The notes beneath the pieces are model-generated. The model was not told the DNA's origin and ran no database searches. It saw only the letters and a program-made list of their open reading frames with translations. From contig JAFWDK010000010.1 of the NCBI GenBank assembly GCA_017513085.1, positions 288,001-352,000 on the forward strand: a DNA stretch of 64,000 bases. The letters run 5' to 3'. A program made the position numbers and the translations under genes. Shown piece after piece: positions 203 to 33,700 of the stretch (position 1 is the stretch's first letter; every line of letters begins with the position of its first letter). The DNA is from Clostridiales bacterium (GTDB taxonomy: Bacteria; Bacillota; Clostridia; Saccharofermentanales; Saccharofermentanaceae).

Positions 203-1207
203 TCAATTCTCTTTTTTAAACCCGGCTAACGGGTTTTTGGAAACCGCTTCGTGAAGAGTGTCGTCATCCACATGGGTATAGATCTGTGTAGTGGCGACAC
301 TTTGATGTCCAAGTATAGTTTGGAGACTTCGAATGTCAACTTCGCCGTATTTGTACATTAAGGTGGCTGCGGTATGACGAAGCTTATGGACGGAATACAT
401 GGCAGGATCGATTCCTGAAGCAGATAACAGGTTTTTAATGATATTCTGAATCATCTGAGTACTGATCCGTGTACCACGTTTACTCAGAAAAAGCGCTTGT
501 TCGTCCTTGACCTTCATTTGATCCCGAATCGGATAATAGTCGCGTAATGCGACTAGACAGGCATTGTTGAGATAGATCGTGCGTTCTTTGTTGCCTTTGC
601 CTACTACTCGGAGTGTATCATCACGTATATCTGAAAGATTGATCATTTGAAGCTCGGAAAGACGCATGCCGCAATTCAGAAACAGCGTAACGATGCAAAA
701 ATCTCGTTCTGAACTTGGCTTTGACGAATGTTCGGCTGTTTCCAGAAGGTGAACGCTCTGTTCCAGATTCAGGTATTTTGGTAAACGCTTCGGGCGCTTG
801 GGTGTTTCCAATTCGTAGGATGGATCATCTTTGATGATCCTCTTCTTTTGGAACAGATATTTAAAGAAAGACTTTAATGTGGCGACTTTTCTGGCACGTG
901 TGGCGGCAGAAGCTTTGCGTTCGCGGGAAAGAAATATCATAAAGGCGAAAAGATCGTCCTGGGCGATTCGATTCAGGAATTTCTCGTCAACATCGCTGAT
1001 ATCGATATCGTCAAATTGCAGTTTGTCACTGAGTGTGACAAGTCCCCAGTCTTTTTTTAGAAAACGAAAGAAGAGGAGAAGATCGTATTTGTATTCTTTT
1101 ACGGTCAAAGGTGATTTTTCCTGAACAGCCTGCATATATCGCAGGTACTGTTCCAGAATCGGAAAAGTCGCTTGTTCTCCGGATGATTTTCCTTTCGGAC
1201 GCCCCAT
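203..1207 (-). CDS. xerC: Xer-family site-specific tyrosine recombinase (334 aa)
   Basis: N-terminal SAM-like domain (KSPLTVKEYKYDL); full catalytic set R(GMRLSEL) K(GKGNKER) HxxR(HKLRH) H(LGH) Y(TQIYTH); GGAGGA RBS; flanked by housekeeping genes. Confidence 0.85.
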   Translation of the reverse strand: MGRPKGKSSGEQATFPILEQYLRYMQAVQEKSPLTVKEYKYDLLLFFRFLKKDWGLVTLSDKLQFDDIDISDVDEKFLNRIAQDDLFAFMIFLSRERKASAATRARKVATLKSFFKYLFQKKRIIKDDPSYELETPKRPKRLPKYLNLEQSVHLLETAEHSSKPSSERDFCIVTLFLNCGMRLSELQMINLSDIRDDTLRVVGKGNKERTIYLNNACLVALRDYYPIRDQMKVKDEQALFLSKRGTRISTQMIQNIIKNLLSASGIDPAMYSVHKLRHTAATLMYKYGEVDIRSLQTILGHQSVATTQIYTHVDDDTLHEAVSKNPLAGFKKEN

Positions 1208-30948: not shown

Positions 30949-31518
30949 ATGAGCGATAACGAGAATAATATAGAATTAGAAGAAATAAACCAGGAAGATT
31001 TTGAGCAGGAGCCGGCGGATGAGAAAACCAGAAACGACTCCTGGTGGGAACGTGCATTATTTGCAGTTCTTGGTTTTTTTGCATTTCTGGGAAGAACTAC
31101 ATGGAATTTCTTTAAAACTTTACCGAGCCGTATTTCAGCAAAGATAAAAGAAAAAATTGCCCAGAAAAAGAGGATGCCTAAGCGTAAATCTATTCATAAA
31201 GTCTATGTACTGGTTGGATATACGACCAAAGAATACGTTAATCGGAAATATCGTAAAGAACGTATTTTATTGATCGTTCGAAGGATCTTGGTAGCATGTA
31301 TCATTTTGATCATTCTGGTTATGGCATATCGTTGGATCATGCCACAGTTGGATACTGACGAATATAAACAGATGATCGGAATCAATGATATCAATGATCT
31401 GACTAAGAGTGATCCTTTTGCCAAAGAATCTACAACAGCAGCTGTGCAATTAGATTCACAAGCAGTTACACCAATTCCATCTGCCACGTCAGAAACAATC
31501 GATAGTAGTAATTCTTGA
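30949..31518 (+). CDS. Hypothetical membrane protein
   Basis: AAAGGA RBS, upstream TGCTATAAT; acidic N-terminus, hydrophobic segment, basic region, TM, S/T-rich tail. Confidence 0.75.
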   Translation: MSDNENNIELEEINQEDFEQEPADEKTRNDSWWERALFAVLGFFAFLGRTTWNFFKTLPSRISAKIKEKIAQKKRMPKRKSIHKVYVLVGYTTKEYVNRKYRKERILLIVRRILVACIILIILVMAYRWIMPQLDTDEYKQMIGINDINDLTKSDPFAKESTTAAVQLDSQAVTPIPSATSETIDSSNS

Positions 31519-31526
31519 ATATAAGA

Positions 31527-31560
31527 AGGGGCCTTGAAAAGAAAAGGCCCCTGATTTTTT
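31527..31560 (+). terminator. Intrinsic terminator
   Basis: AGGGGCCTT-gaaaagaa-AAGGCCCCT followed by GATTTTTT. Confidence 0.8.
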
Positions 31561-31567
31561 ATAGATG

Positions 31568-31599
31568 CAATTAAACAAAATCACAGTTTTGTTTAATTG
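31568..31599. other. Candidate dif (chromosome dimer resolution) site: 13-bp perfect inverted repeat with 6-bp spacer
   Basis: CAATTAAACAAAA-TCACAG-TTTTGTTTAATTG, intergenic, at the gene-orientation switch; the repeat is certain, the dif role is inferred. Confidence 0.65.
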
Positions 31600-31623
31600 G
31601 GAAGAGGTTTTATAATATAGAAG

Positions 31624-31684
31624 AAACTCTTTCCGAAATATGTTCCAAGCTTACTGAAAGCTTTGTTTTCCGGAAAGAGTTTTT
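31624..31684. terminator. Long hairpin, probable (bidirectional) terminator for leuA
   Basis: AAACTCTTTCCG...CGGAAAGAGTTT stem with inner AAGCTT/AAGCTT pairing; T-rich tails on both strands. Confidence 0.6.
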
Positions 31685-31744
31685 GTAAACAAAATCGATG
31701 ACCGCTCAGGAGCGTTTTATTTTCTTTCAGATGATGAATCGTAC

Positions 31745-33397
31745 TTAACGGATCATTCTATTTAATGCGCATACGACAGCTCGCAGTGATGATTTGGTTA
31801 CAGAACTTGAAATTCCTGCTCCAAGATGCAACTCTTTATTATCGTCTTCAAGTTGTACATATGTTATAGCCGCAGAATCTGATCCGCTCTTAATGGCGTG
31901 CTCATTATACATCTTGATGGATATTTTAATGTTCAAGTTCTTTTCAAGACCATTACAGAATGCATCCAATAAACCAATACCATCTCCGTTGATCGTGATG
32001 ATCTCATCAGACTTTTTCAGATTCACAGTTACGTGAGCTTTTTTATCGCCAAGCGAATCTTCACGATAACCAATCATATGATATGGTGTCATGACATTTA
32101 CATAAACTTCATCAAACAGTTCAAATAGTTCTTGCGGCATCAGATCGCTGTGACGGTTTTCAGATTCTGCAGTAACGATCTGCATGAAGTCTTTCTGGAA
32201 AGCTTTCGGCAGATGCAATCCAAAATTGCGTTCCATGATATAGGCCAGGCCGTTTTTGCCGGATTGACTGTTGATACGGATGATCGGATCATAATTGCGC
32301 CCAACGTCCGCAGGATCGATCGGTAAATATGGCACATACCATGTATTTTTTCTTTTGACATTTTCCATGCCTTTCTGGATCGCATTCTGGTGTGTGCCTG
32401 AAAACGCCGTAAATACAAGCCTTCCAGCCCATGGCTGTCTGTCACTTATCCGCATTCCGGTACAGGCTTCATACATGTCGATCACATCATCCATATCGGA
32501 GAAATCCAGTTCGGGATCCACGCCTTGCATGAACATATTCATCGCTAATGTCACTATATCCGCATTTCCCGTACGTTCGCCGTTTCCGAAAAGCGTGCCT
32601 TCCACGCGATCTGCACCAGCCATTAATGCCAGCTCAGATGATGCAACTCCTGTTCCACGGTCATTGTGTGTGTGCACGGAAACAATGATAGAATCCCTGT
32701 AACGCGTATGTGTGACAAAATACTCGATCATGTCTGCAAAAACGTTCGGTGAAGTCATTTGAACAGTTTCAGGCAAATTAATGATCACCTTTTTATCCGG
32801 CGTCGGTTTCCATACGTCTAATACGGCATCACAGATCTCCACGGCAAAATCCGGCTCCGTTTCGGAGAAATTCTCAGGTGAATACTCCAGAAACCATTCT
32901 GTGTTGCTCTCATCCTGATCGATCTCCGCCTGGATCATCTGTGCGCCTTTCACGGCCAGTTCCTTGCATTGTTCTTTAGTGAAACCGAAAACGACTTCGC
33001 GTTGTAACTGAGACGTTGCATTATACAGATGAACAATGGCTTTATCGGCGCCTTTAACGGAATCAAAGGTCTTATGGATCACATCTTCACGTGCCATTGT
33101 CAGAACCTGGATCGTAACATCACGAGGAATCAATCCGTTGTCGATCAGATAACGCGTGAATTCATATTCGGTATCAGAAGCTGCAGGATATCCGACTTCA
33201 ATATGCTTAAACCCGATCTTTACAAGAAAATCAAAAAACTGGATCTTCTGATTCAGATCCATCGGCACTTCCAAAGCCTGATTTCCATCGCGTAGATCTA
33301 CACTGCACCAAATAGGAGCCTTAGTGATCATACGATTGGGCCACTGGCGGTTTGCAAGCTGGATCTTAGGCGGCATGGTGTATTTATTATGCTGCAT
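31745..33397 (-). CDS. leuA: 2-isopropylmalate synthase (yeast/Mycobacterium-type)
   Basis: APIWCSVDLRDGNQAL, EYSPE, HTHNDRG, GNGERTGN, RINSQSGK; start MQHNKY after GAGGAGG. Confidence 0.95.
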   Translation of the reverse strand: MQHNKYTMPPKIQLANRQWPNRMITKAPIWCSVDLRDGNQALEVPMDLNQKIQFFDFLVKIGFKHIEVGYPAASDTEYEFTRYLIDNGLIPRDVTIQVLTMAREDVIHKTFDSVKGADKAIVHLYNATSQLQREVVFGFTKEQCKELAVKGAQMIQAEIDQDESNTEWFLEYSPENFSETEPDFAVEICDAVLDVWKPTPDKKVIINLPETVQMTSPNVFADMIEYFVTHTRYRDSIIVSVHTHNDRGTGVASSELALMAGADRVEGTLFGNGERTGNADIVTLAMNMFMQGVDPELDFSDMDDVIDMYEACTGMRISDRQPWAGRLVFTAFSGTHQNAIQKGMENVKRKNTWYVPYLPIDPADVGRNYDPIIRINSQSGKNGLAYIMERNFGLHLPKAFQKDFMQIVTAESENRHSDLMPQELFELFDEVYVNVMTPYHMIGYREDSLGDKKAHVTVNLKKSDEIITINGDGIGLLDAFCNGLEKNLNIKISIKMYNEHAIKSGSDSAAITYVQLEDDNKELHLGAGISSSVTKSSLRAVVCALNRMIR

Positions 33398-33423
33398 CTT
33401 CTCTTCCCTCCTCTTATAAAAAA

Positions 33424-33700
33424 TCAAACAAAAAAGCTTTCGTCTCCAATAAGAGACGAAAGCCTGAACTTCCGCGGTACCACTCTTCTTCATCCCTTCA
33501 TCGGGATGCACTCATCGGATACGAGAAAACCTGATATCCTGCTCTTCGATAACGGTAAGCCTCCGTCTTCATCTACTTGGATTTCAATGAAGCCACTCCG
33601 AGGCGAGTTCGAAACTGCGTTTTCATCTGCTTGCACCATCCGCAGACTCTCTGAAGAAATTGCCGGTTTCTACTAGTCCTCTTCAACGTGTTGTTCTTAA
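33424..33700 (-). ncRNA. T-box riboswitch with Leu (CUC) specifier
   Basis: Stem I motifs AGTAG...AGAGAG...GGTGCAA...GAA-CTC (specifier at 33607-33605); T-box AAGAGTGGTACCGCG (33487-33473); terminator GGCTTTCGTCTC-TTATTG-GAGACGAAAGC-TTTTTT. Confidence 0.92.

Follow-up and report, generated by a model that had tools for sequence, protein, structure and literature searches.

A palindromic dif-like site at the replication terminus of a Clostridiales genome and a candidate single Xer recombinase for it

What is a perfect palindrome doing between two convergent genes, at the point where the GC skew of a clostridial genome changes sign? The palindrome lies in a stretch of 64,000 nt from a Clostridiales bacterium, which we call the window, and a preliminary description made from the letters alone had proposed it as a dif site, a target for the resolution of chromosome dimers, served by one recombinase instead of the XerC/XerD pair. 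We find that it is most likely the chromosomal dif, and that the single Xer-type recombinase encoded at 203-1207 of the window would act on it to resolve dimers at the terminus. Position at the terminus, single copy, conservation, arms that change in mirror image, one intact Xer gene, and the linkage between gene and site all point to this reading. The system is most likely a variant of the known single-recombinase Xer/dif kind, one that we have not found described for these Clostridia.

The genome (G000) is a draft of 36 contigs and 3,059,185 bp, 99.4% complete, with a G+C content of about 0.47. Coordinates are those of the window unless a contig (C5, C10) is named. The features that carry the argument are the following.

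31570-31597, no strand assigned: 28-bp core, the proposed dif, with arm ATTAAACAAAA at 31570-31580, spacer TCACAG at 31581-31586, and arm TTTTGTTTAAT at 31587-31597
31568-31599, no strand assigned: 32-mer, the palindrome lengthened by CA/TG, with its outer two bases less conserved in congeners (0.73-0.95)
203-1207, minus strand: the only Xer-type tyrosine recombinase gene of the genome (334 aa), the proposed partner, 30.4 kb from the site

The site and the replication terminus

The 32-mer reads CAATTAAACAAAA-TCACAG-TTTTGTTTAATTG, a 13-nt inverted repeat that is 100% complementary around a 6-nt spacer. Direct reading of the window bears out the sequence, the coordinates, the perfect arms, and the spacer as they were first given. 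Only 5 of the 28 bases of the core are G or C, compared with about 0.47 for the genome. The 32-mer occurs once in the window with up to three mismatches allowed (0 of 100 shuffles gave a match), and once across all 36 contigs, at C5:319568, so that the single-copy status anticipated for it holds.

The turnover of GC skew that had been predicted for this place is found both in the window, where the skew changes sign near 32 kb, and in the genome, where the cumulative skew of C5 peaks at 320,000, less than 500 bp from the site at 319,568. Skew changes sign on two contigs of the genome, with a maximum on C5 at 320 kb and a minimum on C10 at 159 kb, and dnaA (C10:158823-160121) sits at the C10 switch. 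Since one of just two skew switches falls at the site and the other at dnaA, the site marks the terminus.

The same position recurs in other genomes. All 10 relatives with long contigs have positive skew over the 20 kb left of the site and negative skew over the 20 kb right of it, with the cumulative maximum at -1.5 to +10.5 kb relative to the site. Three large chromosomes of other Clostridia (one of them a 2.03-Mb contig of presumed circularity) carry a single copy of the site, at 51.3%, 50.5%, and 51.2% of the length from dnaA. Among the matches listed, 105 loci have at least 1 kb on each side, with about ten species counted twice; 65 of them show the terminus pattern of skew signs, and left skew exceeds right skew in 87%.

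How conserved is the site? We scanned 23 congeneric species with a 28-mer pattern in which the arms were fixed and the spacer free, allowing up to two mismatches. The pattern is found in one place per genome in 22 of the 23, with 21 sites exact in the 22 specified bases and one carrying two mismatches. The spacer is TCACAG in 19 of these 22 sites, and the other three have single-base variants of it. An alignment anchored on the site, with 22 sequences (the window and 21 congeners; one congener was dropped, its site lying at a contig start), gives an identity to the majority base of 0.98 across the 32-mer versus 0.41-0.45 in the flanks.

Beyond the genus, a scan of a collection holding one genome per species, using the pattern ATTARACAAAA-N6-TTTTGTYTAAT, returned at least 119 stretches, most of them labelled Oscillospiraceae, Clostridia/Clostridiales, Acetivibrionales, Ruminococcus, Saccharofermentans, or Mageeibacillus, and some Pyrinomonadaceae, Dehalococcoidia, Melainabacteria, or Flexilinea. 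The AAAA-N6-TTTT palindrome that the preliminary description had expected at the skew switch of related Clostridia is indeed present there. Outside the genus of the window, the spacers are TAAAAA, TAAAGA, or TTATTA.

Locally, the site is intergenic, between convergent genes and their two terminators. Both hairpins, which the preliminary description had placed on either side of the palindrome, were found by folding and terminator analysis.

31527-31562, plus strand: intrinsic terminator of the plus-strand gene 30949-31518, with a 9-bp stem including 6 G-C pairs (31527-31552) followed by a T-run, -18.3 kcal/mol
31624-31682, minus strand: terminator-like hairpin after the minus-strand leuA-like gene 31745-33511, with 15-nt arms that are 93% complementary, -23.5 kcal/mol

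The neighbours are of the housekeeping type: mutL, miaA, hfq, lexA, and an open reading frame (ORF) of 189 aa on the left, and the leuA-like gene (HMGL-like and LeuA_dimer domains), a DAHP synthase, and an M18 peptidase on the right. No prophage or integrase is found among the neighbouring genes. A separate element, ATGACCGCTCAGGAGCG followed by a T-rich run, lies at 31699-31730 downstream of the leuA-like gene and recurs in several congeners despite diverged surroundings.

Two identical arms and one candidate recombinase

The two arms of the site change together. The arm pattern has one degenerate position, and among the matches listed it holds a mirrored pair in 111 of 120 distinct sites (80 A..T and 31 G..C; 9 are mixed), which by Fisher's exact test gives p = 3e-19 with relatedness ignored. 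An order-wide scan of 121 genomes with a shorter core and up to two mismatches matched 58 genomes. By hand count, about 30 of the 64 listed places with two mismatches are mirrored pairs (TAGAC/GTCTA, TGAAC/GTTCA, TCAAC/GTTGA, TATAC/GTATA), compared with a chance expectation of 27 of 1377 two-mismatch combinations (2%); the matches that are not mirrored occur at about the rate of a reversed-pattern control. A mirrored change of the arms is what one predicts if one protein reads both. A hairpin would also hold the pairing, yet it would not keep at least nine other positions invariant across families.

Which protein might that be? The genome has four tyrosine recombinases, and the one at 203-1207 is the lone Xer-type gene, as the preliminary description had it. 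Of the other three, one is a 267-aa protein whose gene neighbours an hsdS-like ORF; the remaining two are integrases of the phage type, with arm-binding or SAM_3 domains. The 203-1207 protein scores 226 bits with the XerC model (cut-off 335), 203 bits with XerD (cut-off 330), 197 bits with the XerA model NF040815 (cut-off 220), and 136 bits with the XerS model NF003462 (cut-off 267). Among proteins of solved structure, E. coli XerD (1e-33) and an archaeal XerA (5e-33) come closest to it, ahead of XerH (1e-16), and public records label its homologues 'tyrosine recombinase XerC' or 'XerD'. The candidate partner has an intact set of catalytic residues (R182, K204/K207, H274, R277, H301, and Y310), none of which varies in an alignment of 35 family members with identities as low as 44%.

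The protein is as regular in its distribution as the site. An orthologue with E at most 1e-20 is present in 38 of 40 relatives of the order, with exactly one match in 37 of those 38; the two relatives without a match are 89% and 79% complete. In the window's genome we found one Xer-type gene and no canonical XerC/XerD pair. There is also one FtsK/SpoIIIE gene with a gamma domain (PF09397, 90.9 bits), at 367 kb on C5 and 47.5 kb from the site. A complex prediction between the catalytic domain of the Xer protein (residues 135-334) and the FtsK gamma domain gave 0.00 in two runs made without controls, and carries no weight either way.

Two other recombinase loci can be recorded here. The 267-aa tyrosine recombinase of the window's genome (G000:C9:8490-11394) adjoins a long hsdS-like ORF with repeated target-recognition halves, a locus that we take to be a phase-variable Type I restriction-modification locus. 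In G025, a genome of the same order, three near-identical weak Xer paralogues with 28-29% identity to the window's protein are spaced by about 9 kb (G025:C1:342351-360982), which suggests a tandemly repeated element.

The site and the gene are linked. Among the 119 listed loci of other species, 56 have a full-length orthologue (43-59% identity) that begins no more than 300 bp from the site and is read in the direction away from it. Of the remaining loci, 5 carry an orthologue at another place in the locus, 33 lack one within flanks of at least 1.3 kb on both sides, and in 25 the flank is too short to tell. Where a congener has both on one contig, 30-70 kb separate the gene from the site (all 14 pairs compared); the distance is 6-9 kb in two genomes of another family. 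When we looked for variant sites up to 1.5 kb upstream of xer in 14 genomes of other families, 13 gave nothing convincing; the order-wide scan placed many of the sites elsewhere. In G024, a variant site CATAAACAAAA-TTATTA-TTTTGTTTATG lies 1.4 kb upstream of xer.

In Acetivibrionales-type loci, an extended -10-like sequence, TGTGGTATAAT, stands between the right arm and xer, some 12 nt from the arm (L038, L040, L066, L082, L094, L149), and the site may overlap the xer promoter in them.

Taken together, an orthologue abutting the site in many species, mirrored arms, and linkage at 30-70 kb in the genus lend support, from comparative sequence, to the proposal of a dif served by one recombinase. 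The reaction might then proceed as follows. One monomer would bind each of the identical 11-bp arms, and two sites on a dimer would synapse into a homotetramer. Strands would be cut at the borders between arm and spacer and exchanged across the 6 bp of the spacer. The spacer would give the reaction its directionality: because it is asymmetric, the alignment of the two sites is fixed, so that direct repeats on a dimer would yield two monomers. Going by the parallel with XerCD, XerS, and XerH, it is probably the lone FtsK/SpoIIIE of this genome, a protein with a gamma domain, that licenses the reaction at the septum.

Alternatives and known Xer systems

Several observations weigh against the reading as a dif with one recombinase. 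Perfect 11-6-11 palindromes are not rare: the genome has 58, mostly G+C-rich and terminator-like. As palindromes of the same geometry are common, what exceeds chance at this site is its position and its conservation. Among the 105 listed loci with sufficient flanks, 36 show no change of skew sign in their short flanks and 4 look like origins. One congener (G018, 88% complete) has the recombinase and no site within two mismatches. In a sister genus of the same family, the relaxed pattern is matched in just 6 of 25 genomes; these matches look like noise, so that the sites of that genus were not found. The Dehalococcoidia matches have a different context, one of them with origin-like skew, and thus the 28-mer pattern alone is no proof of function. 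Finally, one Oscillospiraceae chromosome with a perfectly symmetric site encodes a second Xer paralogue of 310 aa, 44% identical to the site-adjacent one (L233, G040:C1:472606-477505, ORF 1983-2915), 21 kb from dnaA and beside transposase and IS (insertion sequence) fragments. Symmetric arms are therefore no proof of a single recombinase in that chromosome.

This last case bears on the possibility that the site is a dif used by two different recombinases, or by one with a second, unrecognized partner. The flank and the spacer are asymmetric, and the Oscillospiraceae chromosome combines the same symmetric site with two family paralogues. On the other hand, the arms are identical and co-vary in mirror image, the genomes of the order with a match have exactly one in 37 of 38 cases (40 searched), and the other three tyrosine recombinases here are one invertase-like protein linked to Type I restriction-modification and two phage-type integrases. 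We regard a second recombinase as unlikely. The one-recombinase claim of the preliminary description thus stands for the window's order and does not extend to every lineage that shares the site; as far as gene content can tell, its validity within the order is secure.

Could the site instead bind a dimeric transcription factor as its operator, or serve xer as an autoregulatory or promoter element, its terminus position simply following that of xer? Invariant palindromes are typical of operators, the site lies up to 300 bp upstream of xer in the 56 listed loci, and the -10-like sequence follows the right arm in the Acetivibrionales type. But in the window and the 21 aligned congeners the site is located between convergent genes behind two terminators, with no gene to regulate; it is 30-70 kb from xer in the genus, yet invariant and at the skew switch; and it is single-copy, where regulons usually have several operators. 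This makes an operator alone quite improbable, and a double role, as dif and in xer regulation where xer is adjacent, would not conflict with dif.

A binding site for a terminus protein other than Xer, either a replication-fork barrier or a terminus organizer, would account for a location exactly at the skew switch. However, the known fork traps and organizers use several sites, often polar, whereas this one is single and symmetric, and its tight linkage and frequent direct adjacency to an Xer-type gene point to the recombinase, so that we give such a protein very little credence. Least credible of all is a structural RNA hairpin or a bidirectional terminator between the convergent genes, a reading that we reject on folding, terminator scan, and Rfam: the site does fold (-12.5 kcal/mol on the plus strand and -10.5 kcal/mol on the minus strand, z about -6), but it is A+T-rich with no T-run on either strand, it is not called by the terminator scan and has no Rfam family at threshold, both neighbouring genes have stronger terminators of their own, its arm sequence is conserved across genera and changes only in mirror image, and in more than 50 species it lies upstream, not downstream, of a gene.

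We now ask how the proposed dif compares with those already described. The generic marks of a dif site (Carnoy and Roten 2009, PMC2731167; Kono 2011), which also define dif in Proteobacteria (PMC2731167) and Legionella (PMC9765430), are all found here at the sequence level: inverted arms of about 11 bp around a centre of 6-8 bp (11-6-11, or 13-6-13), a single intergenic copy with G+C below the genome average, and a place at the maximum of the cumulative GC skew. A candidate Xer recombinase with intact active-site residues is also at hand.

One close system is XerC/XerD-dif, as in E. coli or, with CodV/RipX, in B. subtilis. Both have a 28-bp site of 11+6+11 that occurs once, outside genes, at the skew switch, and is poor in G+C; the Xer here is likewise a short two-domain protein with XerD as its best solved relative, and an FtsK gamma domain is present. 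The match of 9 of 11 bases to the E. coli XerD arm, noted in the preliminary description, is confirmed against TTATGTTAAAT as printed in PMC2731167. The systems differ in that we find one recombinase instead of two, scoring below both the XerC and the XerD equivalog cut-offs, and identical arms in place of a conserved XerD arm with a variable XerC arm. Thus neither of the classical XerCD/dif signs, two paralogues and an asymmetric site, is observed. Nor did we find a canonical dif elsewhere. With core patterns derived from the dif quoted in Kono 2011, the whole genome gives 10 matches to ATAA-N6-TTATGT and 5 to the looser ATAA-N6-TTATG..AA, none of them at the terminus, the nearest, a weak match to the looser pattern, being 18 kb off. 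We reject these scattered matches as candidates; a canonical XerC/D dif elsewhere was among the findings that the preliminary description had named as speaking against it.

XerS-difSL of streptococci and lactococci is also a single-recombinase system in Firmicutes. Its arms, too, end in AAAA and begin with TTTT, and a site directly upstream of the recombinase gene, as in many relatives of the window's genome, is described for it (PMC1914069). By published accounts, difSL is 31 bp long with unequal, imperfect arms and XerS has 356 aa, whereas the site here is symmetric, 28 bp long, and 30.4 kb from its gene (30-70 kb in the genus). The protein is not an XerS equivalog.

XerH-difH of Helicobacter and Campylobacter shares the single recombinase, the 6-bp spacer, and the inner AAAA/TTTT, and the difH site is often near its gene. 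The site-beside-gene module of the 56 loci is the one described for XerS/difSL and XerH/difH. On the minus strand, the spacer here is CTGTGA, one base of six from the CTGTAA of C. jejuni as printed in PMC2731167. In that source, the difH consensus is TGAAAAC---A-TTTTCAAA, with arms TGAAAA/TTTTCA instead of the ACAAAA/TTTTGT found here; the difH arms are reported as unequal, of 11 and 10 bp, and XerH as 354-362 aa. Neither an XerH-type protein nor the consensus arms are found in our case. The preliminary description had given AAAA-CTGCAC-TTTT for difH and AAAA-CTGTAA-TTTT for difSL; the former is right for H. pylori difH, and the latter is printed in PMC2731167 for C. jejuni difH, its attribution to difSL being unconfirmed. 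The closeness to difSL and difH that had been read into these cores turns out not to be special, the protein being nearer to XerD and XerA and the spacers unrelated outside the genus.

In archaea, XerA-dif also has a single short Xer on a 28-bp site, and solved XerA is the second-best structural relative of our protein. The system here is bacterial, with a protein that falls just under the XerA cut-off and so is not an equivalog, and XerA is reported as FtsK-independent, while an FtsK gamma domain is encoded here. Last, XerL-dif of Legionellales, which we compare by description (PMC9765430), combines a single recombinase with long uninterrupted inverted-repeat arms, called unusual among dif sites, and the gene and the site can be far apart in Legionella. 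XerL, however, is described as undetectable by homology to XerC, XerD, XerS, or XerH, and the protein here is plainly Xer-like.

In that source (PMC9765430, 2022), XerS and XerH are the only single-recombinase systems of bacteria mentioned as preceding XerL. A search of the open literature, including PMC3025954, PMC5357621, PMC5241119, and PMC8138268, turned up no account of a dif in Clostridia that is palindromic or served by a single Xer; the supplementary tables of Kono 2011 (97 Firmicutes dif predictions), which lie outside this search, may list the sequence for some Clostridia.

The abutting flank, the spacer, and dif-like sites elsewhere

If the arms are identical, where does the asymmetry of the site reside? 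Two conserved stretches adjoin the palindrome.

31598-31619, plus strand: purine-rich flank abutting the right arm, TGGGAAGAGG... at 31598-31607; genus consensus TGAGAAGARG, then AAAAACAGAA
31561-31569, no strand assigned: short conserved left flank, genus consensus ATATGCA, conservation 0.64-0.95

In the 22-sequence alignment, the purine-rich flank has a conservation of 0.73-1.0 over about 10 bases, and weaker up to about 20. In Oscillospiraceae its consensus is T-T-R-GGGGAGG. Among the matches listed, the side of the flank is coupled to the orientation of the spacer: 85 of the 98 distinct sites with a purine-biased spacer agree, 10 are opposite, and 3 are ties, or 61 vs. 3 where the G count differs by at least three. 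In none of these 98 sites is the spacer palindromic. The flank side is not coupled to the side of xer (30 vs. 26 of 56 adjacent loci among those listed). We therefore reject, as a general explanation, that the flank is the ribosome-binding site of xer, which lies on the purine-rich side in just 30 of the 56; moreover, the flank is also kept in the window's genus with no gene after it, and no ORF starts at 31598-31619.

Strand-polar words guide FtsK/SpoIIIE: GGGNAGGG in E. coli, GAGAAGGG in B. subtilis, and GAAGAAG in L. lactis, as listed in PMC3384302. Of the 16062 heptamers of the window's genome, GAGAAGA and GAAGAAG have the strongest leading-strand bias (ranks 1 and 2), and the heptamers of the window's own flank rank 10 and 12. 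In an Oscillospiraceae chromosome, the top heptamer in the 800 kb around the terminus is AGGGGAG, with 82 leading vs. 3 lagging occurrences, the word that also forms the flank consensus in that family. Two other genomes show a bias of the flank words too, at lower ranks (127 of 14022 in G041 and 62 of 15079 in G024, where the flank word stands on both sides of the site). Thus, the flank word matches the top strand-polar words in 2 of the 4 genomes tested. It points outward from the site in every case, and its polarity is thus opposite to that of the replichore in which it lies. And since purine-rich words are leading-strand-biased anyway in these genomes, a flank akin to the FtsK-orienting polar sequences (KOPS) stays a hypothesis.

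The flank could be a word for the gamma domain, going by these sequence biases, or it could lengthen the outer arm and so make the site functionally asymmetric, a role held by the outer arm in difH. More broadly, we entertain the speculative idea, to which we give only a minor chance of being right, that a large part of Clostridia (the window's order and the neighbouring orders labelled Oscillospiraceae, Acetivibrionales, and Saccharofermentans) uses one XerC/D/A-like recombinase on a symmetric dif, with the asymmetry moved to the spacer and to an abutting, outward strand-polar word, similar to KOPS or to SpoIIIE recognition sequences (SRS). That word would position or divert FtsK gamma, and so decide which pair of monomers acts first. 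XerS and XerH are reported to rely on unequal arms for the order of strand exchange, and the arms here are identical. A natural perfect palindrome with an asymmetric spacer and flank is thus a clean system in which to ask how a single recombinase orders strand exchange under FtsK licensing.

Should the dif reading be true, it would define a dif and its recombinase for a large and mostly uncultured group of gut, rumen, and digester Clostridia, whose genes are currently labelled just 'XerC' or 'XerD'. It would also provide a one-line terminus marker for orienting draft assemblies and for growth-rate estimates, and a native two-part recombination tool, a 28-bp site and one protein, for marker excision in these organisms. 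In addition, elements bounded by dif-like sites, such as the G025 island below, would become readable as Xer-dependent modules in Clostridia.

Copies of the 28-mer also occur in other settings. In Dehalococcoidia, they have a CTT...AAG flank and stand beside an ORF of 390-394 aa (L048, L052, L076, L078, L093, L109, L126), presumably Fic-like, to go by its N-terminus. Further loci outside Clostridia are L031, L036, L055, L070, and L075 (Pyrinomonadaceae, and a Melainabacteria record). One metagenome-assembled genome has the main site and xer on one contig and two more 28-mers on another contig (L045, L096); the two copies of the extra pair, at 711-738 and 1617-1644 of L045, are separated by 900 bp and differ in their spacers. 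Eight stretches came from a scan of viral contigs, among which no integrative element was shown that would indicate use of the site by phages. One of these contigs, of 5.7 kb, is contained whole in a longer one at 100% identity, and another has an xer orthologue beside the site.

As a last example, G025 has an island of 10.8 kb with a G+C of 36%, compared with about 52% in its flanks (L237, G025:C2:712296-727174). It is bounded by dif-like hybrid sites in direct orientation, TAAACATAA-N6-TTTTGTCTA, at G025:C2:714296 and 725151; their right arm is the arm of G025's own dif, and the two spacers differ. The island encodes a LacI-type regulator, a sugar ABC transporter, and isomerases/dehydrogenases, and no integrase is found among its genes. 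It may be an Xer-dependent module or an insertion similar to the integrative mobile elements exploiting Xer (IMEX).

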